Source: a virus (Duplodnaviria > Caudoviricetes). Taken from it: 64,000 nucleotides of DNA. Below the pieces are notes generated by a model that saw only the letters and a list, made by a program, of their open reading frames with translations, was not told where the DNA came from and did no database searches. Shown one piece after another: positions 29,272-43,144 of this stretch. The translations under genes were made by a program, and so were the position numbers. How positions within the stretch are numbered: the stretch's first letter is position 1; every line of letters begins with the position of its first letter. The DNA lies in the IMG/VR virus record IMGVR_UViG_3300031134_000001, positions 32,001-96,000 of that record. One strand, written 5' to 3'.

Positions 29272-29775
29272 ATGGGGGGTAAGGTGATTGAAAAGCTGTT
29301 GTTAAGTATGCCATACAAGTTCGTACAAATCGAGTACCAAGGGAAGAAGTTTTGGGGAATAGCGGCAAATCCCAGAACGATCCACCATATACAAGAGTTT
29401 CGTCGTTACGTAATCAACGCCAAGTTGTTTACGCTTAAGGAGCTACGACAAATTCAAATTGGTGCGGTCGCGCAAGATGAATCGGAAGACCTGCGTATGT
29501 GGATCTATCACGCGATTTGCGAACGTACTGATCTGGTGACCAAAGGACGTTGGCTCTTTTATTTCAACGACAACAGTGAGCTGGTCATCACAACGTACGC
29601 TGATCAAGAACTGGGCATCGCGCCAGTGATCGCAACGCCTACCAGTCATTCACTCAAGGAGTACGATGATTTGTTGGAAGTCGTGGCGCGTCAGAAAGAA
29701 GGCGTAGACATCAGTCTGCGAATTCGTGACTTACAATCCAAACGCGTCGACATCAACTGTAGTAAGCGTGGATAA
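29272..29775 (+). CDS. Hypothetical protein
   Basis: 167-aa ORF ending at a UUCG hairpin; start uncertain (a later ATG is possible). Confidence 0.65.
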   Translation: MGGKVIEKLLLSMPYKFVQIEYQGKKFWGIAANPRTIHHIQEFRRYVINAKLFTLKELRQIQIGAVAQDESEDLRMWIYHAICERTDLVTKGRWLFYFNDNSELVITTYADQELGIAPVIATPTSHSLKEYDDLLEVVARQKEGVDISLRIRDLQSKRVDINCSKRG

Positions 29776-29810
29776 AGCTAACCCACCTTCGGGTGGGCTT
29801 TATGCCGTCA
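29773..29810 (+). terminator. UUCG hairpin with TATGCCGTCA
   Basis: CCCACC-TTCG-GGTGGG, then CTT-TATGCCGTC at 29801. Confidence 0.7.
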
Positions 29811-29825
29811 AAACGAAATGTAATA

Positions 29826-29849
29826 GAAAATTTCAACTCTATATCACTT
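29826..29849 (+). promoter_or_regulatory. Early promoter
   Basis: GAAAATTTCAACTC-TATATCAC-T (core 29840-29847). Confidence 0.75.
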
Positions 29850-29874
29850 AGCCGAATACCTACAGGAGTCATTC

Positions 29875-30186
29875 ATGCAACTGGATAAATTGATACTAAA
29901 AGCTAACTCCATGTCCAAAGAAGATAGCTGCCATGGAAAAATCACTAACATCATTCTTCATCAACCAGATGAAGATACCATTGCCGAACTAAAGGCTCTC
30001 AAAAAAGGGCAGCACATCAACCACATTGAGTTGCGCGATAAAGAAAGTGATGGCTACGAGGATCTCACTTACCATCGCCACGTATTTGAAGTGGTAGGTG
30101 TGTTTGAAGATGAACGTCCTTACAAGAACGTTTTTATGTTAGTTCTGCTCAACTCGATGGGCAGCTTTCGCGCCGTGTCGGAGTAA
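29875..30186 (+). CDS. Hypothetical early protein
   Basis: AGGAG SD, 103 aa. Confidence 0.7.
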   Translation: MQLDKLILKANSMSKEDSCHGKITNIILHQPDEDTIAELKALKKGQHINHIELRDKESDGYEDLTYHRHVFEVVGVFEDERPYKNVFMLVLLNSMGSFRAVSE

Positions 30187-30199
30187 AAGGAATAAAGTA

Positions 30200-30550
30200 A
30201 TGGATTCCCAACAAGCTCTTCGCAGTCTTATCATTAACGCTATTGCATTACATCCCGCCCGTAGTGCAACTATGCAAGAAATCAACTCGACCCTTGGCTG
30301 GAATGTCATCACCCGCTACAAAACGGAGTATGCCATTCCAGCAGTAACTTCGCATGAAGTATTGAACTTGATGCTTGGACAGATGGTGCTTCAACGTAAG
30401 TTGAACATCGTTACCCGTGACGGCGTTAATTGTTACGCTATTGCAGAACGCGACTTCATCCCTCCAGATCACACCGCTGAGATTGAGGATCTGAAAGAAC
30501 GCGTCAAGGCTCTCGAAGACCTCGTTCGCAACCTCACCCAACCTACTTAA
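30200..30550 (+). CDS. Hypothetical protein, possible winged helix plus C-terminal coiled coil
   Basis: AAGGA SD; wHTH-like pattern; heptad tail EIEDLKERVKALEDLVRNL. Confidence 0.55.
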   Translation: MDSQQALRSLIINAIALHPARSATMQEINSTLGWNVITRYKTEYAIPAVTSHEVLNLMLGQMVLQRKLNIVTRDGVNCYAIAERDFIPPDHTAEIEDLKERVKALEDLVRNLTQPT

Positions 30551-30563
30551 CTAAAGGAGTGTC

Positions 30564-30914
30564 ATGAGTATCTTGTCGCAATTTAATCATCTACATTCCA
30601 TTTGCACTTCTGAAGACCTGGACAATCCGCCATTGGAAAATTTGTTCAACGCCTATTCGGTCCGTAACCTGCACGTTAATGACGTGCTCGCTACTGAACT
30701 TGATGATGTTTCGTCAGCAGTTGCTATCAGAACGAATGTGGGGATTATCATCCTTACAAATGAGTGGGAATCCAAGGATGTGTTTTGCCATCTCACAGAT
30801 AGCGTAGCTGCCGATCCAGAATGGCAAGCACTCGGTTTTGAAAAGTCGACGCTAATCGACACTGAGGAAAAGTGGACGTTTATCCTCAGTCAACAACGTT
30901 ACACCGGTCTATAA
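30564..30914 (+). CDS. Hypothetical early protein
   Basis: AAGGAG SD, 116 aa. Confidence 0.75.
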   Translation: MSILSQFNHLHSICTSEDLDNPPLENLFNAYSVRNLHVNDVLATELDDVSSAVAIRTNVGIIILTNEWESKDVFCHLTDSVAADPEWQALGFEKSTLIDTEEKWTFILSQQRYTGL

Positions 30915-30942
30915 CCCAACTAACAACACAAGGAGCACTACC

Positions 30943-31389
30943 ATGGCAACTGCAAAAGAACTGTTTGAAAAATTCCTCGATCAAGAAGCGGATAACAAAC
31001 TTTCCTACCATCTGCACACGCTGGAATGGCTAAAGAGAAAGCGCTCGAATGCTGAGGGTTCCCTTACCGTGTGTAAAATGGCGTTGGAGCAAAAGAAAGA
31101 AGAAACGCCACTGCCGCACCACATGAACGATTTCGAAGACGAGCTGGACGAAATCGATGCGCAAACAAAAATCAACGACGCCATGGACAAGGTGCTCGCC
31201 ATCGCCGAAGACGACGACGGCTTTATCATCACGAAGGGCGATTCGGAAAAGCCGTGGTACGAGCAAGAACCAGTTTACTGGACTCCGCACAAACCAACTG
31301 CCGACTGGGCCGTCACGTTCTTCAACGCCCATGCGATCATCACCGCACCAGAAGCCAAGCCTTTCAATCACGGCTGCTTCGTGGAGTAA
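30943..31389 (+). CDS. Hypothetical acidic early protein
   Basis: AC-rich leader with AAGGAG SD, 148 aa. Confidence 0.8.
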   Translation: MATAKELFEKFLDQEADNKLSYHLHTLEWLKRKRSNAEGSLTVCKMALEQKKEETPLPHHMNDFEDELDEIDAQTKINDAMDKVLAIAEDDDGFIITKGDSEKPWYEQEPVYWTPHKPTADWAVTFFNAHAIITAPEAKPFNHGCFVE

Positions 31390-31392
31390 TCG

Positions 31393-31836
31393 ATGCAGTT
31401 ATCCACCGTAAGTGAACGCAACCTTGACTTGGTTTTGGCTATAGCGCAAGGTAAGACATTACAAGCTGCCGGCGCCGAAGTGGGTATTAGCATCGAGCGA
31501 ACTCGGCAAATTGTGCGTAGCTTTTGCCGGGAGTACTTGCGTTACTCTCAATCCCAAGGTACGCCGGAAACGTTTTATCCAGGACCTGACATCGAAGGTG
31601 AACATTACTTCGGCGAGAGTCCCTACAACAATCACAAGCACAGCGACCCGACAACCAGCATGCGCAGCTTTAGACGGCTGTGGAATAAAGGTTTAGCTGT
31701 GTTAGATGTTGGAGCGTCGAATCCATGGCCCGGCCTTGACCGTCTCGAAGATTTGCGTTTAAATAGCGACTATTGGATACACCAAATTAAGTTGCTGCGT
31801 GAACGGCGTGCCTCATCTAAACACAAGGTAAAATAG
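31393..31836 (+). CDS. Sigma-70 region 4-like HTH protein
   Basis: GKTLQAAGAEVGISIERTRQIV resembles the sigma region 4.2 pattern TLxEIGxxxGVSRERVRQI. Confidence 0.6.
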   Translation: MQLSTVSERNLDLVLAIAQGKTLQAAGAEVGISIERTRQIVRSFCREYLRYSQSQGTPETFYPGPDIEGEHYFGESPYNNHKHSDPTTSMRSFRRLWNKGLAVLDVGASNPWPGLDRLEDLRLNSDYWIHQIKLLRERRASSKHKVK

Positions 31837-31837
31837 C

Positions 31838-32167
31838 ATGAAAATCGTAGATCTTGCCACATTTTTGGCCTATCCGGACGGTGTGGTATTTGCCGAGTAC
31901 GACCCTTGCATCATTGGGGAAATTGAAGTGCGTGGCGATGTCTGGATGTATGACAAACTAAGTAACTGCTGCTATCAGCGTTTTTCGCTGTTTGGTGCAG
32001 ATAACCCACCTTGCGGCCTGGGCACCGAAGGCGAGCTCGAAACCGACGTCTATTCTCGTACGGGGCCTGGGCTTAATGAAAAACAACTTTTCGCTGTCTT
32101 CGACAAGAAGGACATCAGCGTGATGATCAACCGTCTTCAGCGAGCATTGGACGAAGCAAAGGAGTAA
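31838..32167 (+). CDS. Hypothetical phage protein
   Basis: 109 aa, coupled to its neighbours. Confidence 0.75.
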   Translation: MKIVDLATFLAYPDGVVFAEYDPCIIGEIEVRGDVWMYDKLSNCCYQRFSLFGADNPPCGLGTEGELETDVYSRTGPGLNEKQLFAVFDKKDISVMINRLQRALDEAKE

Positions 32168-32168
32168 C

Positions 32169-32438
32169 ATGGACCAAACATCTAGCGATCTTCAATTCAC
32201 TAGCGTGTACTCCGGCAAGCTTCTGTCTGAAGTGCCATTTGATCACTTATGGGCGGACATGCCCGTCGTTGACGATGACGATGGTGCGGGTAAGATTGTT
32301 AACGTCATTAAGCGAGACCAGTACGGCATGCCGGTTAAAGCGGTGAAAATAACTTGCTTTGAACCCAAAGCCGAAGGCGTTGTTGAAATTACCTACACCG
32401 CCATCCATTCTGAATTAAAGTTCGTGAGGGTAAAGTAA
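32169..32438 (+). CDS. Hypothetical protein
   Basis: GGAG SD, 89 aa, TAATG overlap with the next gene. Confidence 0.7.
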   Translation: MDQTSSDLQFTSVYSGKLLSEVPFDHLWADMPVVDDDDGAGKIVNVIKRDQYGMPVKAVKITCFEPKAEGVVEITYTAIHSELKFVRVK

Positions 32439-32995
32439 TGGCCATCATCGGTATCATCGGCACAGCTGGCCGAGACAAAACCAAACCCATGACGCTAGCG
32501 TTGTGGAAGTGGATGCTCCAAGATGCGTACAGTCGGGTACCTGCGGGTAGTCACGTGGGTTCGGGCGGCGCAGCATGGGCTGACCATTTGGTTGTGTCCA
32601 TGTTCCTGTTTGGTTACACCGGCAACATCACGCTGCATCTGCCAGCGCCTTTCGTTGATGGTAAATACCAGGGCGAAGGATTCAAGAGCGCAGGCTCTGC
32701 CGCGAATTATTACCACGAGATGTTCGGTAAAGTTATCGGTCGCAATACGCTGGAACAAATCGGGGACGTCATCGCCATGCGTGCTAGCATGCCTGAACGT
32801 GTCCATATCACCGAAGAGCCCGCTTCAGCCAGTATCGGCGGGATGTTCGCCCGTAACGCCAAAGTCGCCCAGTTCGACGAACTACTCGCTTACACATTTG
32901 GCGAGGGTGACGTACCAGCTGATGGTGGCACCAAAGACACGTGGGACAAATGCCAAGGCAAGAAAACCCACATTTCCCTTCCCCTTCTTTACTGA
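32438..32995 (+). CDS. SLOG superfamily protein (YspA/DUF2493-like)
   Basis: IIGTAGR, SGGAAWAD, ARN and DGGTKDT motifs match the SLOG pattern (GxR, SGGAxGAD, RN, GGT). Confidence 0.75.
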   Translation: MAIIGIIGTAGRDKTKPMTLALWKWMLQDAYSRVPAGSHVGSGGAAWADHLVVSMFLFGYTGNITLHLPAPFVDGKYQGEGFKSAGSAANYYHEMFGKVIGRNTLEQIGDVIAMRASMPERVHITEEPASASIGGMFARNAKVAQFDELLAYTFGEGDVPADGGTKDTWDKCQGKKTHISLPLLY

Positions 32996-33004
32996 AAGCG
33001 CCCT

Positions 33005-33295
33005 ATGTCCGTTATCCTCCCAGTCATCAAACTCAAGGCAGATTCGATCGTCATCAAAATGGCAGTAGATGGCCGTGTTGTCACATACACGATGTTTAAT
33101 CCTGATCCCGAAACCATGGAGTGTCTGCGCGCAGCACAACTTGGTGACAAATTCAACGGCGTGATCATCGTTGATAAGCGTGACGATGGTGACGACGACA
33201 CGCACATCAACGAACGCATTCAGACATTCCTTGAACTGCATTTGCCCAGCATCAACAAGCGTCACACCCAAAGGGTGACATTCATCAACGGCTAA
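33005..33295 (+). CDS. Hypothetical protein
   Basis: 96-aa ORF in the early operon. Confidence 0.7.
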   Translation: MSVILPVIKLKADSIVIKMAVDGRVVTYTMFNPDPETMECLRAAQLGDKFNGVIIVDKRDDGDDDTHINERIQTFLELHLPSINKRHTQRVTFING

Positions 33296-33308
33296 GAAAG
33301 GATACAGC

Positions 33309-33542
33309 GTGAGTAACATTCAACCTAAATGGATTATATTCATTGTTCGCGATCAAGACGGATCAATGATTTATAACTCGGGAATCTCCGGCAGTGCGCA
33401 TCAGCGACGTACACGATTGCGCGCCCTTCTTCAGCGCCTTCGCCAAGGGCGCGATATTGTTGTATCTAAAAACGAATGGGTAAAAGGTCGCGGGCAGCGC
33501 ACTACCAAAATGATCTGGAGTAAAGAGCTGCCCGCAATCTAG
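33309..33542 (+). CDS. Hypothetical basic protein
   Basis: GTG start after AAAGGA, 77 aa. Confidence 0.6.
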   Translation: MSNIQPKWIIFIVRDQDGSMIYNSGISGSAHQRRTRLRALLQRLRQGRDIVVSKNEWVKGRGQRTTKMIWSKELPAI

Positions 33543-33586: not shown

Positions 33587-33653
33587 GTGTGAATTGGAAA
33601 CGGTATCGATTAAACGAACCGTTTCTTACCCTAACTTACACTGGAGAATTACC

Positions 33654-34034
33654 ATGAACTTCATCAAATCGATCTGGAATAAAGTCAAGTCGTTCTTCGG
33701 TGGCATGTTCGCGTCGAAGAAAGTCACCGCAGCACCAGCTGCACCAGCCGTCAAAACCGAAGTGGCTCAAGCTGCTGAAGTCATCAACGCTGAAGAAGTC
33801 CAAGCTGAAGCCGATGCTAAAGCAGAAGCTGATGCTCGTATGGAAGCCCTGGCAATTGTATTCAACCGCGTTGCTGAACTGGCTCGCTTCCGTAACTACT
33901 CGCTTGAAGAAGCGCGTACCGCATTCTACGCTGACGACATGACCACCATGGTTCGTATCGAACGCGACATGAAAGCACGCAAGTACAAAGCACCAAAGAA
34001 AGTCAAAGCAGTTAAGCAAGTTGTTGCAGCATAA
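33654..34034 (+). CDS. Array protein 1, N-terminal amphipathic helix
   Basis: GGAG SD, ATG 33654; starts MNFIKSIWNKVKSFFGGMF and ends VVAA. Confidence 0.85.
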   Translation: MNFIKSIWNKVKSFFGGMFASKKVTAAPAAPAVKTEVAQAAEVINAEEVQAEADAKAEADARMEALAIVFNRVAELARFRNYSLEEARTAFYADDMTTMVRIERDMKARKYKAPKKVKAVKQVVAA

Positions 34035-34075
34035 TTCGTTCGTTCCCTATAACTAACAACACAAGGAGCATTACC

Positions 34076-34501
34076 ATGAAACAATTCTTCAACAACATCT
34101 GGTCGAATGTCAAAGACCTGTATGTCAAAGTGCGCAACTTCATCGCACGTCAGATCACGCCTTGCCTGCAATACGGCGACAAGCTGATCAACACCGTCAA
34201 AGCGCTTCGCACGCTTGGCAAAGAAGTGTCGTACATGGACTACGCTAAAGTGGTCCTGGGTTACACCGTGAACATCCTCACGTGCGTGACCTTCGGCGTC
34301 ATCCTGGCTGTGCTCGGTGCGTACGCTACGCTGGCACTGTCGTTCGTGGTTGGCGAATTTATCGCAACCGTGTTCGTGATCGTTGCCCGTACGCTGTTCG
34401 TCATGGACGTGTTCGAAGAAGTTGAAAGCCAGATGTTCTGCGCTAAGATTTCTGAAATTGCTGTCGCAGTGCGTGAACGCCGTGAAGCCGCGGCAGCTTA
34501 A
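34076..34501 (+). CDS. Array protein 2, amphipathic helix plus membrane segments
   Basis: Starts MKQFFNNIWSNVKDLY; hydrophobic stretch of about two TM segments; ends AAAA. Confidence 0.85.
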   Translation: MKQFFNNIWSNVKDLYVKVRNFIARQITPCLQYGDKLINTVKALRTLGKEVSYMDYAKVVLGYTVNILTCVTFGVILAVLGAYATLALSFVVGEFIATVFVIVARTLFVMDVFEEVESQMFCAKISEIAVAVRERREAAAA

Positions 34502-34527
34502 TTCATAACCAACAACAAGGATCTATC

Positions 34528-34992
34528 ATGAACTTCCTGCGCAACCTCTGGACCCGTATCAAATCGTTTTTCAGCAACCTGTTCGGCGGCAAGAAAGTCG
34601 AAGCTGAAGTCAAGGCTGAACCAGCTCCACTGACACCGGCTGCTAAGCGCTTCAACGCCGCTTACGAGAAAGCTGAGCAAATCGCTTTCAACCCTAAGTG
34701 GAGCAACGGCACTGGTTACTTCAACCATGCTGTTGAAGGTGAGCACGCACCAAAACTGGCTGTTGGTCAAATTGTTGCAAGCAAAGTCCCTGCCGCTGAC
34801 AACCGTCGTCTGATCATCGTCGGTACTGCAACTGGCAACGCCGTAATGTTTGAGCGTTACACCGACAGCGCTCAAACACTCGCAAGCAATGTGCCAGATG
34901 AGCTGCGCTCGTTCATCAGCAACCGCCTGTCGGCTGACGATGTAACGTTCCTGCTCAACGCTGGTAACGTACCAGTTAAAGCTGCAGCGTAA
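34528..34992 (+). CDS. Array protein 3, amphipathic helix plus globular domain
   Basis: Starts MNFLRNLWTRIKSFFSNLF; has RRLIIVGTATGNAVMFERY; ends KAAA. Confidence 0.85.
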   Translation: MNFLRNLWTRIKSFFSNLFGGKKVEAEVKAEPAPLTPAAKRFNAAYEKAEQIAFNPKWSNGTGYFNHAVEGEHAPKLAVGQIVASKVPAADNRRLIIVGTATGNAVMFERYTDSAQTLASNVPDELRSFISNRLSADDVTFLLNAGNVPVKAAA

Positions 34993-34997
34993 TACCG

Positions 34998-35023
34998 AAG
35001 AGGGGGATCGCCCCCTCTTTTAT
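34998..35023 (+). terminator. Intrinsic terminator
   Basis: AAGAGGGGG-ATCG-CCCCCTCTT hairpin. Confidence 0.65.
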
Positions 35024-35047
35024 AAACAACAATAACTAGGAGTTGTC

Positions 35048-35425
35048 ATGAATTTTCTGAAGAAATGTTTCAACCGCGTTGTCGGCTGGATGGCTTATCC
35101 GTTGGCCAAGTCGATGGACAAGATGGCGCAGCTCTTCGCGCCAGCACTGGTCGACCTGAAGTCGGACCGTAGTGTGAAGTGGACGTGGAAAGCTGTGGGT
35201 CAAGTGGTGATGGGCTTCTTGCTCTTGATCCTTACGTCTGTCGCGCTCTGCGTAACCTTTGTCGGCTCCATCGCCGGCATCACGTTGCTGCTTGCTCTGG
35301 TCCTGCCATCGCTCTTGGCTAACGTGATCGCCATCCTCGGCACGTTGTACATCGGTCACTGCGTGTACGAAGTCACCGAACCAATGCGTGCTGACGAAAT
35401 CGCTGTTGATTTCGAACTTAACTAA
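35048..35425 (+). CDS. Array protein 4, membrane protein
   Basis: Starts MNFLKKCFNRVVGWM; long hydrophobic region. Confidence 0.85.
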   Translation: MNFLKKCFNRVVGWMAYPLAKSMDKMAQLFAPALVDLKSDRSVKWTWKAVGQVVMGFLLLILTSVALCVTFVGSIAGITLLLALVLPSLLANVIAILGTLYIGHCVYEVTEPMRADEIAVDFELN

Positions 35426-35460
35426 TCCAATACCTGTTGTACCTTTAAAGGAGCATTACC

Positions 35461-35841
35461 ATGGAACGTATCAAAAACTTCTTCGTCGGCGTCGCCAAGT
35501 TCGCCTACGACTTCTTCATCCACCCAATCGTCAACCTGCGTCACCTGACGAAGATGGACAACACAACCAAAGCCCTCAGCATCATCGAAGCGGCTTCCCG
35601 TGTCATCGTCATGGCATCGTGGGTCGTCGCTGTGCCAGCCCTGCTGGTTACCCTGGCATGGACGTGGATCATCGGTACGCTGATCTGGGTCGCTGCAACC
35701 GTCGCTTTCATGATGGGTTCGATGGTTGCTATCGGCAAAATGGCTGGCGAATTTGATGCCGCTACTCCAGCTGCTGAAGTCAAAGCCGCCGACGCTGCTG
35801 AACCAGCAACTGAATCGACCATCATCCTCGCTACGGCCTAA
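35461..35841 (+). CDS. Array protein 5, membrane protein
   Basis: Starts MERIKNFFVGVAKFAYDFF; two TM-like segments; ends LATA. Confidence 0.85.
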   Translation: MERIKNFFVGVAKFAYDFFIHPIVNLRHLTKMDNTTKALSIIEAASRVIVMASWVVAVPALLVTLAWTWIIGTLIWVAATVAFMMGSMVAIGKMAGEFDAATPAAEVKAADAAEPATESTIILATA

Positions 35842-35844
35842 GCC

Positions 35845-36141
35845 ATGTGGGATTTTATCAAACGCCTCTTTAAATCCATCTACCGTCGTACGGTAGGTGG
35901 GTTGGTGCGGTTGGTAAAACACGCGGCGCAGGGTAAAGTGGATGGTCATGACAAAGTCGTGGTGTCGCGTTTCTTGCGACAGAGCGCGTACTTTGTGGTG
36001 CTGTTCTTCTTCCCAGCCCTGGGTGGTTTGCTTATGGCTTTGCGTATCATGGCGTTGGGTGATGTCTTTGGCATCATTAGCGACGTGTACGAAGATGTCG
36101 TTACCGCGTATTTAAAACAACCCGCACCTGCCCCCGCCTGA
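35845..36141 (+). CDS. Array protein 6, membrane-associated
   Basis: Starts MWDFIKRLFKSIY; hydrophobic AYFVVLFFFPALGGLLMAL; ends PAPA. Confidence 0.8.
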   Translation: MWDFIKRLFKSIYRRTVGGLVRLVKHAAQGKVDGHDKVVVSRFLRQSAYFVVLFFFPALGGLLMALRIMALGDVFGIISDVYEDVVTAYLKQPAPAPA

Positions 36142-36180
36142 TTCAGGTGGTGGGTAGATGCCCACCATTTGGAGAACAAC

Positions 36181-36480
36181 ATGCGTAAATTGCTCGCATT
36201 TGTAAAAGGCTTTTTCTTCACAGCGAAAGTCATTGTGTCGGCGATTGTGGCGCCAGTCGCGCAGCTGCTGAAAAGCACGTTGCAAAATAAGCCGTTGTCG
36301 GTCTTCCAGTTAGCGTTTGCTATCTGGCGTTTGTTCGTATGGACGATCTTCGTTCTGTGCGTTACGTCATCGGTGGGCGTCCCTGCCATCATCGCTTACC
36401 TGTTCTTAATCGACGTCATGGTCGTTTGCGTGCAGGTCGTGGCAATCACTGTCCTTAACTTGAAGGAGAAAGCAGTATGA
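36181..36480 (+). CDS. Array protein 7, membrane protein
   Basis: GGAG SD, ATG 36181; starts MRKLLAFVKGFFF; two or three hydrophobic segments. Confidence 0.8.
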   Translation: MRKLLAFVKGFFFTAKVIVSAIVAPVAQLLKSTLQNKPLSVFQLAFAIWRLFVWTIFVLCVTSSVGVPAIIAYLFLIDVMVVCVQVVAITVLNLKEKAV

Positions 36481-36845
36481 AAAAGTTTCTCGACACCTTA
36501 GCGGTGTTTGTTGGTAACCTGCTGGACTTGAACCCCAAGTCGTGGCTGGAATCCCAACGCCAAGCGCAGAAGATGCGCGAAGCAGCGCGTGCATGGGAAG
36601 CTGTCCCAGCGCCTTCGATCGTTCACAAAGACGGTCAAGAAGAAGTCGCCGCAGCGCCTGAGTCGCCATTTAGCTACCTGGGTCGCACCGCCCTGGTCGC
36701 GCTTGGCTTTGTTGGTCTGGCGTGGGTCGTAACCCAAGTGGTTACCGCGTTCATCTACGTCCTGCCTATCTTGGCAGGTCTGGCAACGCTGGCTTTGTTG
36801 ATGACCATGTTTGGTCCCAAGAAGCCTGACCCAATCCCAGCATGA
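36477..36845 (+). CDS. Array protein 8, C-terminal helical hairpin membrane protein
   Basis: Starts MKKFLDTLAVFVGNLL; two TM-like segments near the C-terminus; ends PIPA. Confidence 0.85.
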   Translation: MKKFLDTLAVFVGNLLDLNPKSWLESQRQAQKMREAARAWEAVPAPSIVHKDGQEEVAAAPESPFSYLGRTALVALGFVGLAWVVTQVVTAFIYVLPILAGLATLALLMTMFGPKKPDPIPA

Positions 36846-36907
36846 ACACCGCAGTAAAATCCATTTCATTTTCTAATCGCAGCAAAATCAAACATCGGAG
36901 ATCTACC

Positions 36908-37609
36908 ATGAAAAACGCACAACAAGCCCAACACGTCGCTAACGCCATCAAAACCGTCCGCGCCCAAATCGAAGCACTGCGCGAGCAGATCAAGTCGGCC
37001 ACCGGCGACGAACGCATCGCGCTGCAAGCCGAAGCCAACGCGCTGCTCGAATCGATCGGCGTGGAATCGTCGGTCGGTGTGCAGTCGGCCGACAACAGCA
37101 CCGCTGGTCACATCCTGGGTAACATCAACGCCGTTGTCGAGAAAGCTGGCAACATCACTGGCTTGCCAATCGAACCAGCTGAAATCGATGTGAAGATCAC
37201 CAACGCCGACGGCAGCAGCACCACCACCCACACCACGGTCGAGACCAAGAAAGCTGGCCTGTGGACCCGCTTCAAACTCTGGTGCGCAGAGAACAAGAAG
37301 AAAGTGATCTTCGGTGCTATCGGCCTGGCCGCCGGCGCTGCTGGTCTGTGGTTCTGGATCAATGGTAAAAATACTGTGAACGTTACATCCTCTGCAACGG
37401 ATGTGATCATCACTGCCGAACCTACCATCCAAACCGGCGAGGCTGACCCTTCGATCTTCGAACGTGTCGGTGCCTGGGTTGTCGGTGCTGCTGGCGCCGT
37501 CAAAGGCTATGCGGTCAACGCCTGGTCGTGGGTGAAGGGTCTGTTCAACCGTAACAACAACACGGAGGTCAACGTTGAAGTCCCAGTCCAAATGCCACTC
37601 GCTGCCTAA
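36908..37609 (+). CDS. Array protein 9, coiled coil plus TM plus amphipathic helices
   Basis: GGAG SD, ATG 36908; GLWTRFKLW, TM VIFGAIGLAAGAAGLWFWI, WSWVKGLF; ends PLAA. Confidence 0.85.
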   Translation: MKNAQQAQHVANAIKTVRAQIEALREQIKSATGDERIALQAEANALLESIGVESSVGVQSADNSTAGHILGNINAVVEKAGNITGLPIEPAEIDVKITNADGSSTTTHTTVETKKAGLWTRFKLWCAENKKKVIFGAIGLAAGAAGLWFWINGKNTVNVTSSATDVIITAEPTIQTGEADPSIFERVGAWVVGAAGAVKGYAVNAWSWVKGLFNRNNNTEVNVEVPVQMPLAA

Positions 37610-37706
37610 TGGCCGGCACTACCCTTCCGGTAAACAAGCACTTGTCTCGTTGGTGTTGGCCTTCGTGATCTTTGTGATCGCCAACATTTCCACCGGTCGG
37701 TTCTAA
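37575..37706 (+). CDS. Small overlapping 43-aa tail-anchored membrane peptide (not in the ORF track)
   Basis: GGAGG at 37564-37568, 6 nt before TTG 37575; encodes MKSQSKCHSLPNGRHYPSGKQALVSLVLAFVIFVIANISTGRF. Confidence 0.5.
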   Translation: MKSQSKCHSLPNGRHYPSGKQALVSLVLAFVIFVIANISTGRF

Positions 37707-37789
37707 AAGCATACACTCATGAGGAGCTCGGGGTAACCCGGCTCCTTGTGGGCGTATGTTGTTTCTTTTTTCTTTACAGGAGTTGCCTT

Positions 37790-38071
37790 ATGGTCGCTGC
37801 CCTCGTTGCAAGCCTGCTGTTGTTAGTGACAGCGGTTCGTCGTAAAGCTGCTGAGCCGGTCCAACCGATCGCCGCTAAGCCCGTACCTAAACCCAAGCCA
37901 GTAGCTATGCCAGTGATGCCACGTGCTGCGCGTACTGCGCCACCAGCGCTTAAGCGTGATCGTCGTCCAACGTTGAGTGTGGATGAATACCAGCAGCAGT
38001 ACGCCACCCCAGTATCATTCAAGGTGGAGCTTACGGGCTACAACTTACCTCCTGGAACACTGACTTACTAG
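37790..38071 (+). CDS. N-terminally anchored Pro-rich small protein
   Basis: AGGAG SD, ATG 37790; MVAALVASLLLLVTAV followed by RRK. Confidence 0.7.
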   Translation: MVAALVASLLLLVTAVRRKAAEPVQPIAAKPVPKPKPVAMPVMPRAARTAPPALKRDRRPTLSVDEYQQQYATPVSFKVELTGYNLPPGTLTY

Positions 38072-38144
38072 AAAAATATTGTAAGTCAGCAATACCATGT
38101 CCGACAATTTACCTATAACTCCATACCAACAGAAGGGATTCATC

Positions 38145-38942
38145 ATGAAACTTTTTTCGACCATGTCGCCAGCTGAGCAACAAGCAATCCAACGTTTTTA
38201 CAATGGTTTCCAGAACGCGCCGACCACCATCGCGTTTCGTAGCCAGTTCATCGAGCGTAAAGCCGATGGCAGCGTCGGGTTCATGCCAATCATCAGTGAC
38301 CCCGTCAAGCGGATCGTGATGAAGGAAGGTGATACGGCGCGCATGCACAATGTGCACCCGATCGAGACCAAACAACACCTCAACAGTCTTTTCCTGTTGA
38401 TCGGCACGCCTTACGGCACGCTCGTGGTGTACGGTCGTGAAAACGAGTACAAGATCAATGGCAAAAATGTGGTCCTCGGCCCGTTGCCACAGCTGCACCA
38501 CACGGCGCGCTTCTTAGGCGCTGCCCTGCGGTTCTTCGCTCGCACCAAGCGTGGCAAGACCACCACGGCGGAACTGGTGACCTGGATCTTCTCGGACAAC
38601 TTCGAACGTGACATGGAAGAGCAAGCGCAGCTCGACCACGTCACCGAACAAAAGACCGGCAACACCAATCTGCTGGGCGACGGCATGCCACCCCGTATTC
38701 GTCAGCAACACCCAACGCAGAAGAAAGCCTATGATGTGAGCAAACGGCGTGGACCTATCCAGCCTGTTGCCGACTTCCAAAACCCGAAGGAAGTCCAACC
38801 ACATCCGCTGGATATCATCCCGTGCCGTGCCAATGGTTTCAAAGGCACGCGCTACGCTAACCAGACGCCAGAACAGCGCGCTGAAGGCGCTGCGATGGTG
38901 GTACAGCCTGGCGTTCTTTCGGGTGTGCATCCAGCGGTGTAA
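38145..38942 (+). CDS. Hypothetical protein, possibly sharing a domain with 34528-34992
   Basis: ATG 38145; LFLLIGTPYGTLVVYGR resembles LIIVGTATGNAVMFER. Confidence 0.75.
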   Translation: MKLFSTMSPAEQQAIQRFYNGFQNAPTTIAFRSQFIERKADGSVGFMPIISDPVKRIVMKEGDTARMHNVHPIETKQHLNSLFLLIGTPYGTLVVYGRENEYKINGKNVVLGPLPQLHHTARFLGAALRFFARTKRGKTTTAELVTWIFSDNFERDMEEQAQLDHVTEQKTGNTNLLGDGMPPRIRQQHPTQKKAYDVSKRRGPIQPVADFQNPKEVQPHPLDIIPCRANGFKGTRYANQTPEQRAEGAAMVVQPGVLSGVHPAV

Positions 38943-38961
38943 CATCCACTAAGGAGTTATC

Positions 38962-39210
38962 ATGGCCAATCCACAGAAGCAAGCTCAGTTCAAAGCACGT
39001 CAAGATGTGTTGCGTGACGAAGTCAATCTGTTTCTTTCGCAAAACAAGCGCGAAGTCGCCATTCGACATTACCAAGACAAATGCGCTTGCACTCTCGATC
39101 GCGCTGTTCAGTACGTCGAATCGGTGGAACGGGAACGTCGCGCTGTGCGTCATGAAGACTTCTTAACGCGGGTTCGCACTCGTAGTTGGTATGGCCATGC
39201 AATTGCTTAA
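38962..39210 (+). CDS. Small protein with a ribosomal L7/L12 C-terminal-like helical motif
   Basis: AAGGAG SD; KREVAIRHYQDKCACTLDRAVQYVES resembles KIxAIKxYRExTGxxLxEAKxxVE. Confidence 0.45.
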   Translation: MANPQKQAQFKARQDVLRDEVNLFLSQNKREVAIRHYQDKCACTLDRAVQYVESVERERRAVRHEDFLTRVRTRSWYGHAIA

Positions 39211-39256
39211 ACGGCATAAGCCCGCTACCCTTCGGGGTAGCGGGTTGTATGACGTC
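39211..39256. terminator. Bidirectional UUCG terminator
   Basis: ACGGCATA-A-GCCCGCTACCC-TTCG-GGGTAGCGGGT-TG-TATGACGTC at a convergent junction. Confidence 0.8.
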
Positions 39257-39269
39257 TCTTTTTTTTTGG

Positions 39270-40082
39270 CTATCGACCAATACCGCTGATCAACGAGATG
39301 TATCGGGTCATGGATTCCGGGTCATTCATGAACGCGACCTTGGCCCAGGTTTCATCCAGGTATTCCCGGTACATCATTTCTGCATCGGAATAACCTTCGA
39401 CGATTTCCTTGAACTTACCGACTTGCACACCACCACGCAGTTCACCCATGTCGAGCTGGATGATGTACGAGTTGTAGATGAAGGACTTGACAGCCAACTC
39501 CACTAGGCGGGCAAAGGCCAGGTAGCTGCGGGCTTGGATGTTTGACAAGTTCTCATCGTTCTCCAGCGAGCAGCGTAAGTACATGTTCTGCGGTAAAATC
39601 ATGGCGTCTTGCACCATCACCACGTTCTCACCGATTAACTCCACACGCGCAGTACCGATGTTACCAGTGCGCAGTTGTGCTTCCATGACTTGGGATGCCA
39701 TGGACAACGCAGGACTACCACGCCCTGTGCCGTAGTTGCCACCATAGCCACTTTGTAGATTGGCCAGATAACCGTACGTGACATCGAACACGCTCAAGAT
39801 CGCGCGGCCGTTGGTCTTTGTTTTGGGAATCTGAAAGACGGTGACGTAACCGTTCTCAACTGTTTCTCGGGGAACGTCACTTAAGTCAATCCGCGTTTCC
39901 ACGCCATTGACCAAGTTACAGTCCACCAACACACGCGGTGCGAGCACCATGAAACGAATGCGTTCTTTGATGTCAGAAGGCAGATCGCGAAACTGTTGAT
40001 ACGGTTCTTGGAACACCACCTTCAGAATCTCGCGCGGAATGCGGAACATCACTTCATCCAGCGCTTTGGTAATGGGATTCAT
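39270..40082 (-). CDS. Conserved virion structural protein (phiKZ gp32-like)
   Basis: N-terminus MNPITKALDEVMFRIPREIL typical of this family; 270 aa. Confidence 0.6.
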   Translation of the reverse strand: MNPITKALDEVMFRIPREILKVVFQEPYQQFRDLPSDIKERIRFMVLAPRVLVDCNLVNGVETRIDLSDVPRETVENGYVTVFQIPKTKTNGRAILSVFDVTYGYLANLQSGYGGNYGTGRGSPALSMASQVMEAQLRTGNIGTARVELIGENVVMVQDAMILPQNMYLRCSLENDENLSNIQARSYLAFARLVELAVKSFIYNSYIIQLDMGELRGGVQVGKFKEIVEGYSDAEMMYREYLDETWAKVAFMNDPESMTRYISLISGIGR

Positions 40083-40177: not shown

Positions 40178-43144
40178 ATGAATCAATCGCGTAAGCCCCT
40201 TGTGCATCTTCTTTTCGTCGGCATCAAAACACCAGAATGGTGCAACGATTCTGAGAGCGGCATCAGTAAACTGCTCCATCTCATGAAATCGGAAGGCTCG
40301 GCCATCATCGCGCTCGGTGACGAAGAGATGACCGCCGTGGGTAACAACGCCGCTTTCTTGGCACTGAAACAGAAGGTTGAAGAATTGCGCTCGAAAGGCT
40401 ATAAAGCAGATCGCTGGGTGGTTGTTTCGAATAGTAACAACTTCAGGTTTATTGGCGACATGGATGGTCGCCCCATCGATTTCATTTACACGCACATTCA
40501 CCCTGGTGAAAATACGTATTTGTACGAAGATGATGAGCGGTCGCAGTATGGCAAACCACGGGCGCTGAATAACGTTTTAATGGCCATGCGTCAACAAAAC
40601 AAGCAAGCCGAGAAAAACAAACTATCGGGCCTTCTGCCAACGCTGTTGATCAAAAAACTGCTGGTCAGCATGGTGTACCATCTCAACGCTACGCCACCCG
40701 ATCGAAACAATGAGCGCGAGTTGCGCGAAATCATCGACTTTACTGAACGCCAGCTGACGCTTGGTAAGTTGTTCCCTAAGCCCGACCCTATTAACAACCA
40801 ACAACCACAAGGAACCACCATGGACAAAAACCATATCGTGCAACTGCTCAAGCTGACATGCCAGATGCTGAAGCCAGAAGAAGCGAATTCGTCGACGATC
40901 GACGGAGAAGTTGTGTGTCGTGACCTGACGTGGGTTAAAGAAAATGCAGAGACGACGCTGAAGGATATCGTACCACGGGCCACTCCGATCGTCATCGGTG
41001 AAACTCTGGTGGCACTGCAAACCATCGTCCCTCCGCACCCTCTGTATGCGGCAAAACTCACTGATGATCTCAAGCGTGTGATCAATGCGATGAAAGAGCC
41101 AGAAGCTGAAGCTAGCTCGCAGCCAGCGGATGATCAGAAAGCGCCGGTCGTTCACGTCGCGCCAATGGGTAAGCGTAAGCAAGTTGTCGAAACTTTGGCA
41201 CGCGCTATCGGCGCCATCGAAAACGGCGCCGACCTGAACGAGACCGAGAAGAAAGATCTGGTGGACGACCTCGCGTTTATCCATCGCAACTTCGACACGA
41301 TCATTCCCGAGCCCAAAGCACCGACACACCACAAGAACGTCAACCTGATTCTCGACGGCTTGAGCGATCAGAATTGGGGCAAAGATATCCAGGCGTTGTT
41401 CGACGAAATGAACAAACGTGGCGGGCGTACTTTCCAGTTCAACCAGTACGGTTTCGACACGAATCAGGACATTGCTTTCGCTGCTGAACTGGGTGACTAC
41501 CTCAAGGTTGTGCATCCCGACTCGACCTGGGTCGTCATCAAGGTTAACCCTGACGCGAAAAAGGAAGCCACGCTGGGTGATAAACCAAGCACCGTGATGA
41601 TGCAGCATTTCAAAAGCAAGGTGCTGGATCACAACGTCGCCTACTTGACCTTCACGGCGGGTATTAAATTTAGCACCATTAAGTCGTCCCTCTATCAGGT
41701 GCTGGAAAAGCATTTGCGCCGTATCGCTGGCGCGAACCAGACTGAAGAGAAAGCGCCAGAGTCCGCCACGCCAATGGCAGATGAAATCCTGAAAGCGCTA
41801 CGCAACCTGGACGTGATGCGTGAAGCGTTGATGCCTTTGTTGCCAAAGCCGTCTTCCGAACCATCGGAACTGCAAGAGTATTTGCAGGGTTGGCTGCGTG
41901 ATTTTAATGGCATGCCTCCAGGCCCTGGTGCGAACTTCCAGCGGTTTGGCCGTCTTCCACAAGGCTATGCCGATGACTGGCGCTTCAATGTCAATGGTCA
42001 TCCAGATCAACAAGGCTATGGTCCAGTCGGTGGTTGGCCAATGTCGCAACCACCTTCGTATGGACCAGGTCGCGATCCATCGCAAGAAGCTTGGCGTACA
42101 TCACGGGCACCATTCATGGATTACGCCCGTCGTCCGCAGGGTGGTTCTTTCACGGAAGAAGTGTTGAAATCATTTAAGGGTGTGGTCGCAGTGCACGTGT
42201 ATGGCACATCCGGTGAGATTGCTTTGAAGCGCTTTATGAATATTTTCCATCAAGCGCTTCCACATGCGATGCTGACTGTTGTTCAGCATCAAGACCGGCA
42301 AGAGATCTCGTTGTTGGATTTCATACAGGAAGAGGAAGCGAAAGCAAGGTTATCGACTGGTCGTAAGAGTATTTTCCATGCCACTTTTTTCCTCGCACAA
42401 AGTGATGTTGCTGCGCACCGACACCTGCAAGAATTTAAGTATCAGATGGCTATGCATCATATTCCCTGCCCATGCATCGGTGCGCATGTTGTTAACGCGC
42501 ATGCGTTGTTGAATGCGAGCGATTTTGGTTCGCAATTACTTCAGTTTATCCAAAACCCACAAAGCAACGCTGGTGTCAATAGCGATGTAAGCCATCTGTC
42601 GCCTCAGGGTCGTGACAACGTCGAAGCGATGAAGCATACTCTGGAGCGCAACGGGCTGGGACGCTATGCATCGCAACCACGCCTGTTCGACGCCTTCAAT
42701 CAGTTCGAGGGGGTGTTGGCCATTCATGCCGTCGGCAAGCACAATGCGCACCACATGCGTGCAGCGAACCTTGCCATCCAGATGTTGATTCCAAACGCAC
42801 ACGTGGAAGTGTTTGCGTATTCGCTCGACGATAACGATGGTGTCAACACGTGCGGGAAGCTGATGAAGAATGTGTCGAAACTGAAGCAGCATCAACTTCA
42901 CGTCGTGGTATCGGCGGCGCAACCAATGCCGCCTTTGCCAGCACCAGGTGTGTCAAGCAACTTGGGCTATATGCTGTATTCCGCATTGTCGACGACTTTC
43001 CGTCCGAGTAAAGGGGCCGTGACGATGTTGGCTGAAGGTGCAATCACCGGCATCACGGTGCAAGCGCTGCAAGAAGTATTTGTCAGCGTACTCTTCGGGC
43101 TCTTGGAATCGGAAGCGCTTCCTCAGCCGACGCGGCGTTTCTAA
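40178..43144 (+). CDS. Large modular early protein of unknown function
   Basis: 988 aa; AGGAG SD; internal in-frame SD and ATG at 40820; duplicated alpha/beta unit near the C-terminus. Confidence 0.85.
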   Translation: MNQSRKPLVHLLFVGIKTPEWCNDSESGISKLLHLMKSEGSAIIALGDEEMTAVGNNAAFLALKQKVEELRSKGYKADRWVVVSNSNNFRFIGDMDGRPIDFIYTHIHPGENTYLYEDDERSQYGKPRALNNVLMAMRQQNKQAEKNKLSGLLPTLLIKKLLVSMVYHLNATPPDRNNERELREIIDFTERQLTLGKLFPKPDPINNQQPQGTTMDKNHIVQLLKLTCQMLKPEEANSSTIDGEVVCRDLTWVKENAETTLKDIVPRATPIVIGETLVALQTIVPPHPLYAAKLTDDLKRVINAMKEPEAEASSQPADDQKAPVVHVAPMGKRKQVVETLARAIGAIENGADLNETEKKDLVDDLAFIHRNFDTIIPEPKAPTHHKNVNLILDGLSDQNWGKDIQALFDEMNKRGGRTFQFNQYGFDTNQDIAFAAELGDYLKVVHPDSTWVVIKVNPDAKKEATLGDKPSTVMMQHFKSKVLDHNVAYLTFTAGIKFSTIKSSLYQVLEKHLRRIAGANQTEEKAPESATPMADEILKALRNLDVMREALMPLLPKPSSEPSELQEYLQGWLRDFNGMPPGPGANFQRFGRLPQGYADDWRFNVNGHPDQQGYGPVGGWPMSQPPSYGPGRDPSQEAWRTSRAPFMDYARRPQGGSFTEEVLKSFKGVVAVHVYGTSGEIALKRFMNIFHQALPHAMLTVVQHQDRQEISLLDFIQEEEAKARLSTGRKSIFHATFFLAQSDVAAHRHLQEFKYQMAMHHIPCPCIGAHVVNAHALLNASDFGSQLLQFIQNPQSNAGVNSDVSHLSPQGRDNVEAMKHTLERNGLGRYASQPRLFDAFNQFEGVLAIHAVGKHNAHHMRAANLAIQMLIPNAHVEVFAYSLDDNDGVNTCGKLMKNVSKLKQHQLHVVVSAAQPMPPLPAPGVSSNLGYMLYSALSTTFRPSKGAVTMLAEGAITGITVQALQEVFVSVLFGLLESEALPQPTRRF

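Follow-up and report, generated by a model that had tools for sequence, protein, structure and literature searches.

Do the small proteins of one gene array in a bacteriophage genome share a functional carboxy-terminus, and if so, what reads it? The question arises from a 64,000-nucleotide (nt) stretch of DNA (hereafter the window; bases 32001-96000 of the complete 271,026-bp virus record IMGVR_UViG_3300031134_000001, which has direct terminal repeats), in which nine tandem + strand genes (g1-g9, 33654-37609) encode proteins whose last residues run from VVAA in g1 to PLAA in g9 (Table 1). Alanine (Ala) is the last residue in seven of these nine C-termini, four end in Ala-Ala, and one ends in Leu-Ala-Ala; our gene models confirm all nine ends as they were first listed. 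An initial annotation had described them as ssrA-like and as possible built-in degrons that might make the proteins short-lived, or turn them into decoys that saturate host proteases.

The record derives from a phyllosphere metagenome, and the phage has a GC (guanine plus cytosine) content of 52.5%. Among its genes are those for a tail sheath, a terminase, PhuZ tubulin, a nuclear shell protein of the chimallin type and split beta subunits of RNA polymerase. The hallmarks of the Chimalliviridae (chimallin shell, PhuZ tubulin and split multisubunit RNA polymerase; phrog_4795, phrog_4733, phrog_3148, phrog_2986) are thus all present, and because of them we place the phage among the nucleus-forming jumbo phages of this family. 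Chimallivirus infection has an early membrane-associated phase that is poorly understood, and the array proteins all lack an assigned family (Pfam and PHROG scans, run on every one, returned nothing over noise); a selected C-terminal tag shared by this cohort of small membrane proteins would provide a concrete experimental handle on its timing or sorting.

Terminal alanine is concentrated in the array

To set the array against the rest of the proteome, we called 277 genes genome-wide with a simple codon-model picker of open reading frames; C-termini depend on stop codons alone. Terminal Ala was enriched in the array (7/9 vs. 31/268, or 11.6%, in the rest of the 271-kb genome, p=1.6e-5, Fisher's test), as was terminal Ala-Ala (4/9 vs. 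8/268 elsewhere, p=2e-4, Fisher's test). The ends were also clustered: the array is the sole run of nine genes with seven Ala ends, all others having six or fewer (permutation P=0.002 for a maximum of at least seven). Ala ends were found in only 2 of the phage's 28 other transmembrane (TM)-like proteins, and in 0/11 proteins of the neighbouring, tightly packed small-gene block at 29272-33542.

Array proteins are richer in Ala overall (14% vs. 8.5%), and the surplus lies in the final two to three residues. Counting from the last residue (-1), the Ala fraction in three lineages was 0.78, 0.70 and 0.60 at -1; 0.56, 0.70 and 0.50 at -2; and 0.44, 0.20 and 0.40 at -3, falling to ~0.1-0.2 at deeper positions. 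The terminal Ala codons include GCA, GCT, GCC and GCG; because they vary in this way, no nucleotide motif underlies the pattern, and we ruled out a DNA-level motif at gene ends.

Ala-Ala ends occur beyond the array in 8 of the 268 other genes, vs. ~3 expected from position-wise Ala frequencies. Several of these eight have ends rich in Ala or Pro, such as AKAAA (93238-94671 in window numbering) and TQAAAA (125409-125837).

The ends are retained while the tails change

Relatives' arrays were recovered by protein searches and exact-sequence look-ups, which yielded a near twin of the window phage and six further lineages (Table 2). In all of them the array occupies the same position, with the terminase region on one side and the DUF7484 and PhuZ genes on the other. 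Lineages D and F have contigs of 189 kb and 237 kb, respectively. Across seven lineages, terminal Ala was found in 39/55 (71%) array proteins vs. 8/68 (12%) other genes of the same loci, counts that are not phylogenetically independent; four of the eight Ala-ending flanking genes are copies of one gene, g11, which lies downstream of the array.

Table 2. Lineages compared and the number of array proteins ending in Ala
Lineage	Contigs	Relation to the window phage	Ala ends
W	window record	this phage	7/9
B	L002, L003	near twin	
C	L007, L008, L011-13	related	7/10
D	L004	related	6/10
E	L014	fragment	1/2
F	L017, L018	related	8/9
G	L019	related	6/8
H	L020	distant	4/7

Ala-Ala is kept in nearly all lineages by g1, g3 and g9 while the preceding residues change, as in QVVAA, QAVAA, AAVAA, AKRAA and AKKAA for g1, or VKAAA, PAKAA and SAKAA for g3. 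Orthologues differ between lineages in the Ala codon used, so that the residue is constant through synonymous turnover. Codon divergence between W and D was 34%, 25% and 51% at positions 1, 2 and 3, respectively, and because third positions have diverged so much more than first and second positions, the array genes are under purifying selection, with silent sites near saturation. Right-justified identity between lineages was 62% at -1, 47% at -2 and 33% at -3 to -8 (last two positions vs. -3 to -8, p=0.0017, Fisher's test on pairs that are non-independent), and the array end outlasts indels and even complete replacement of the tail. Where the last residue is not Ala, it is mainly a small one, Val, Thr or Ser (KAV, AAV, PAV, AAT, PAT, VVS, LAS); by hand count, ~50/55 array proteins end in Ala, Val, Thr or Ser.

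The ends also turn over. The end of g4 is Asn or Val in three lineages and Ala in three, that of g7 is Val in four and Ala in two, despite the overlap of its last codons with the g8 ribosome-binding site, and those of g6 and g8 switch between lineages as well. Because a high equilibrium frequency is combined with turnover, including gains of Ala in g4 and g7, this distribution argues for a continuing pull towards terminal Ala rather than plain inheritance. From these comparisons we consider it very probable that the C-terminal ending is under selection.

Array content differs even among close lineages: one variant of lineage C has g3 and another lacks it (L007 vs. L011), and an extra paralogue, gx, occurs in lineages C, D and F (L004:10512-10904; L017:8119-8511) and not in the window phage. 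As to wider distribution, partial relatives came from straw, food-production, dairy and wastewater metagenomes. Searches of GenBank phages, at the nucleotide and protein levels, with the array, a 988-aa neighbour and a g9 relative gave no match; among these phages, Burkholderia FLC9 and Ralstonia RP12 come closest (tail sheath identity of 42% at best, in FLC9), and inspection of the syntenic spot revealed no such array in either. A search of IMG/VR with g9 and a metagenome pattern scan using g3 were likewise without a match, and the DUF7484 neighbour retrieved from IMG/VR one contig, which stops short of the array. We also compared the contigs of four public sequencing runs to 33600-39300; a phyllosphere metatranscriptome has short contigs, 85-99% alike, across several array genes, which is no sign of expression, since an RNA library may carry DNA and contigs give neither level nor ends, and the uncovered parts are uninformative.

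The g9 family keeps a defined end

The strongest single evidence for a functional carboxy-terminus comes from the family of g9, the last gene of the array. A profile search of 1.84 billion representatives gave 24 clusters at ≤50% identity, of which 21 (88%) have Ala as the last residue and three have Val. Among the 24, the residue at -2 is Ala 14 times and Pro 7 times, and Pro is found at -4 in 11; Ala makes up just 13% of the preceding 22 residues. The C-terminal consensus reads E-x-V-P-A, followed by up to two Ala or by a Val, and the two distant members of the family that we inspected show the same synteny, downstream of an array of proteins with N-terminal helices. This pattern shows that the conserved core is Pro-Ala, not Leu-Ala-Ala. 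The exact match to the tmRNA (transfer-messenger RNA) tag, which the initial annotation had singled out, is in fact confined to this phage and its near twin; relatives end in PQAA, PAAA, PVAA, PAGA or TVVA.

Host proteases as candidate readers of the ends

We reasoned that the ends may be degrons for host proteases, a reading to which we give a probability of roughly 0.4. On this reading the final one to three residues make up a C-terminal tag under selection, which is small and nonpolar, usually Ala and often Ala-Ala or Pro-Ala, and which would be placed on a short disordered tail. The tag is common to a cohort of small proteins encoded side by side in one clade of nucleus-forming jumbo phages, and most of these proteins have a TM hairpin as well as a cationic amphipathic helix at the N-terminus. 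Its reader would most likely be the host machinery for ssrA-like nonpolar C-termini: where soluble or peripheral members (g1, g3, g9 and g2) end in Ala-Ala this would be ClpXP, and for members embedded in the membrane it would be FtsH, itself membrane-bound. The cohort would as a consequence be short-lived and be removed once its period of action was over. If host ClpXP or FtsH is indeed the reader, the array would be an operon-scale case of a virus encoding protein lifetimes in its genes.

Ala-Ala-COOH is the critical ClpXP determinant, and 91% of the top 100 tags in a pentapeptide screen end in Ala-Ala, which a tag needs but which does not suffice by itself (PMC10862746). Further readers of the ssrA tag are ClpAP, Lon, FtsH and Prc, and variants of the tag with AAV-type ends are slower with ClpXP (PMC9382460). 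The Ala-Ala of ClpX C-motif 1 is present in g1, g2, g3 and g9, most of whose orthologues retain it, and absent from g4-g8 (LN, TA, PA, AV and PA). In AlphaFold2 (AF2) models, based on shallow alignments, the tails of g3 (residues 147-154) and g9 (215-233) have a predicted local distance difference test score (pLDDT) below 50 and look disordered, as a degron would need to be; a ClpX C-motif-1 tag calls for an accessible, unstructured tail of 5 residues or more. TM hairpins and positive charges predict cytoplasmic C-termini, and by the positive-inside rule alone the hairpins would put those of g2, g4, g5 and g8 in the cytoplasm; tails extend past the last TM segment by 7 residues in g7, 9 in g8 and more than 30 in g2 and g5. 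We found no ClpP and no S41 protease in the phage genome, which rules out a ClpP or S41 tail-specific protease of the phage itself as reader; if a protease reads the ends, it would have to come from the host.

The initial degron proposal holds insofar as the ends are non-random, are apparently selected across lineages whose third codon positions have diverged by ~50%, and include Ala-Ala ends that fit the ClpX motif and, in two modelled proteins, sit on low-confidence tails; several other features weigh against it. Upstream of Ala-Ala, recognition is favoured by Leu at -3 and a hydrophobic or aromatic residue at -5, and by the absence of Pro, Gly, His and short polar residues from -3 (PMC10862746), and these are mostly lacking in the array: Leu at -3 occurs only in g9 of this phage, where relatives have Gln, Ala, Val or Gly, g1 and g2 end in Q-V-V-A-A and E-A-A-A-A, and some array ends carry Pro or polar residues that are unfavourable by the same account (PMC10862746). 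A look-alike C-terminus may moreover be functionally irrelevant, as in PdeH, which ends in LAL, yet has its degron at the N-terminus (PMC12974527). The exact Leu-Ala-Ala is not conserved, and Pro-Ala, Thr-Ala and Gln-Ala, none of them an established ClpX signal or degron, account for roughly half of the Ala ends. The V-P-A of the g9 family, with its upstream Glu, suggests a more specific, docking-like recognition. The Ala end cannot be essential to every one of the proteins, since single orthologues lose it altogether (AAGV, AAAI, TAAT, PVIQ), and the AF2 model of g9 is ambiguous as to whether the second hydrophobic helix spans the membrane and as to the topology of the C-terminus.

Like the ssrA tag and natural ClpX C-motif-1 degrons (…LAA-COOH, with LVA and AAV variants), the array proteins present a free Ala-Ala or small nonpolar end on a tail that may be unstructured; 4/9 end in Ala-Ala, which g1, g3 and g9 keep over lineages, and AAV-like ends are present. 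Unlike ssrA, these ends are encoded in the genome by ordinary codons before TAA or TGA and are not added by tmRNA (a check of the phage genome for a tmRNA gene found none); the array also lacks an SspB-binding part, rarely has favourable upstream residues, does not conserve Leu-Ala-Ala, and has Pro-Ala or Thr-Ala at half of its Ala ends. MuA, Mu repressor variants and lambda CII are phage proteins with built-in C-terminal ClpX or FtsH signals, and in them, as would be the case here, a mobile element leaves it to host AAA+ proteases, through the C-termini of its own regulators, how long these regulators last. Those are, however, single regulators with individually mapped signals, whereas here ~10 unrelated or distantly related small membrane proteins share an end. 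FtsH substrates combine membrane proximity with a cytoplasmic nonpolar C-tail, of which ~20 residues are needed for initiation. Built-in C-terminal protease signals are known on single phage proteins; for jumbo phages, our literature search turned up no account of an Ala end shared across an array.

Tsp (Prc), which had also been put forward as a reader, is a poorer candidate. Keiler and Sauer reportedly described, in 1996, a preference class for the last residue of Tsp substrates, and the array ends fit that class. Tsp is periplasmic, however, and the hairpins predict cytoplasmic ends; it is an unlikely reader for g1, g3 and g11, because these have neither a signal peptide nor a TM segment.

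Alternative explanations for the shared ends

We think it rather doubtful that the ends serve instead as a non-proteolytic docking or sorting signal, in which a common partner from phage or host would bind the free Ala carboxy-terminus through its V-P-A core; the cohort might then be assembled or sorted at a membrane compartment, or be handed to one of the phage's own classic-clade AAA ATPases, all three of which are candidates. Such a signal would suit the g9 family, which keeps a defined E-x-V-P-A rather than a generic Ala-Ala, and the Pro-Ala type of end on the unrelated g6, g8 and g11. The phage also encodes three AAA ATPases (Table 1), and the only one that we searched (172791-174227) has proteasomal Rpt4 and p97-type unfoldases as its nearest solved relatives, with E-values of only about 1e-6. 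However, the ends are degenerate (AA, PA, TA, AV), which would be a better fit to a permissive protease pore than to a specific binding pocket, and the Ala end is lost in individual orthologues. Two of the three ATPases are tandem paralogues (phrog_2376).

An unlikely elaboration is a two-part address, in which the cationic amphipathic N-helix would direct the proteins to a membrane, possibly that of the early infection vesicle, and the free Ala carboxy-terminus (V-P-A or A-A core) would be recognised by a single dedicated reader, either a phage AAA ATPase or a host sorting factor. If true, it would constitute a previously unknown phage protein-tagging system.

The initial annotation had also raised a decoy function; we regard it as improbable that abundant membrane-bound array proteins, through their ssrA-like ends, competitively inhibit or saturate FtsH or ClpXP and so shield other phage proteins. 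Lambda CIII and SpoVM are small amphipathic-helix inhibitors of FtsH, and the array combines amphipathic cationic N-helices (hydrophobic moment, muH, 0.40-0.59) with nonpolar C-ends, both relevant to FtsH, in many copies within a single operon-like block. The parallel is, however, pure analogy, the array being without homology to CIII or SpoVM, and its protein bodies are conserved and diverse (the globular domain of g3, the coiled coil of g9), which suggests functions of their own and not bulk substrate.

Nor do we consider it probable that the ends are functionless and result from mutational bias, from low-complexity tails rich in Ala or from the common descent of paralogues. Ala makes up 20.6% of the last 20 residues of the array proteins, g1/g3 and g2/g4 are detectable paralogues, and an intergenic sequence common to several of the genes (below) suggests tandem duplication. 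Even at 20% Ala, however, the binomial probability of 7/9 is ~3e-4, and the excess is confined to -1 to -3; g9 family tails combine 13% Ala with 88% Ala ends, flanking genes of the same genomes have 12% Ala ends, and the array ends survive indels, whole-tail replacement and synonymous codon turnover. Finally, selection on translation termination or coupling, by which an Ala codon before the stop would aid termination or re-initiation in a packed operon, would accord with the tight spacing (g5/g6 3 nt apart, g7/g8 sharing ATGA) and the strong TAA-T at most stops, but is very improbable given that the other packed small-gene block has no Ala ends, the bias reaches -2 and -3 and includes a conserved Pro, long gaps follow g9 and g11, and we know of no reported effect of terminal Ala on termination.

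Organization of the array and its neighbours

The gene starts in Table 1 are fixed by ribosome-binding sites of the form GGAG-N7-8-ATG. For g7 and g9 the starts are most likely the ones given there; for g9 this is preferred to 36842, a choice backed by the relatives and by a gene call in L003.

Table 1. Array genes and other features of the phage (window numbering unless stated)
Feature	Position	Strand	Product	End	Ends in orthologues or relatives
g1	33654..34034	+	126 aa; cationic amphipathic N-helix, no TM, Lys-rich tail	VVAA	AVAA, AVAA, KRAA, KKAA, AVAV
g2	34076..34501	+	141 aa; amphipathic N-helix, TM hairpin	AAAA	VAAA, PVAA, AAGV, AAAI, FAAA, PVAA
g3	34528..34992	+	154 aa; amphipathic N-helix, disordered linker, ~110-aa globular domain, disordered 8-residue tail	KAAA	KAAA, AKAA, AKAA
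Terminator-like GC hairpin plus T-run, 3' of g3	34997..35020	+			
g4	35048..35425	+	125 aa; amphipathic N-helix, TM segments, acidic tail	FELN (non-Ala exception)	VEFN, EIEV, EMEA, EAQA, EVQA
g5	35461..35841	+	126 aa; amphipathic N-helix, TM hairpin	LATA	AAAA, AKTA, PAAA, PAAA
g6	35845..36141	+	98 aa; amphipathic N-helix, single hydrophobic hairpin-like segment	PAPA	TAPA, TAAT, TTPA, NAYA, NSYA
g7	36181..36480	+	99 aa; TM protein; last codons overlap g8 ribosome-binding site and ATGA start	EKAV	EKLA (lineage F), EKTA (lineage G)
g8	36477..36845	+	122 aa; N-helix, TM hairpin, 9-residue tail	PIPA	variable: QPAT, PVTA, PVVS, PAAA, PVIQ, NLAS
g9	36908..37609	+	233 aa; N-terminal helical hairpin, one TM helix, second amphipathic helix, ~19-residue disordered tail	MPLAA	
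g10	37790..38071	+	93 aa; N-terminal TM segment	non-Ala, conserved P-x-Y	TLTY, SPY, TPY, PQY
g11	38145..38942	+	265 aa; soluble, long variable C-terminal half	HPAV	YPAA, DPKA, SVPA, HANA, QLPV
AAA (PF00004) ATPase	genome 171138-172697				
AAA (PF00004) ATPase	genome 172791-174227				
AAA (PF00004) ATPase	genome 181014-182102				
The three ATPase genes span 139138-150102 in window numbering, beyond the window.

The N-termini of g1-g8 are cationic amphipathic helices of the type M-N/E-F-I/L-K-x-I/L-W/F, with muH values at the 89th-99th percentile of this phage's N-termini; g9 has none. One to three hydrophobic segments, mainly tight hairpins, are found in g2 and g4-g8, and none in g1 and g3. The AF2 model of g3 comprises a helix, a disordered linker and a globular domain, and that of g9 a confident helical hairpin, a TM helix and a second amphipathic helix. 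Detectable paralogy is limited to g1/g3 (E=2e-7) and g2/g4 (E=0.002), with tails that are not alignable.

The spacers at 34035-34075, 34502-34527, 35020-35047 and 35426-35460 share a CAA-rich leader, AACAACAAGGAG, 5' of the start codon, which is also found at the same spots in L002, L004, L007 and L011; whole units duplicated in tandem, or a translation-initiation region that the genes have in common, would both fit. The stop codon of g5 lies 3 nt before the start of g6 in the same frame (TAA GCC ATG; 35839-35847), and g7 and g8 overlap at ATGA (36477-36480), spacings that suggest translational coupling.

Two further open reading frames near the array had been proposed to fit its end pattern loosely. 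One of them, g11, does belong to it, in that its HPAV (38942) is replaced in relatives by similar ends although tail lengths differ widely; it had no match in Pfam or PHROG scans. The other, HAIA (39210), is unconserved, with HYA, NLN, RRF and YLV in relatives. A 988-aa protein at 40178-43144, which has no PHROG or GenBank phage match, adjoins PhuZ, and relatives have genes of 775, 895 and 824 aa at the same position (matched by position, not by orthology).

A fold search with the g3 model gave no informative match, the single match being an unnamed homologue. Distant homologues of the g3 domain occur elsewhere without the N-helix and without the Ala-Ala end; one of them, in the P0006 locus (L015:2464-6453), lies directly 3' of a ThiF/E1-like gene and a Prok-JAB-like gene, an arrangement that recalls ubiquitin-like conjugation operons.

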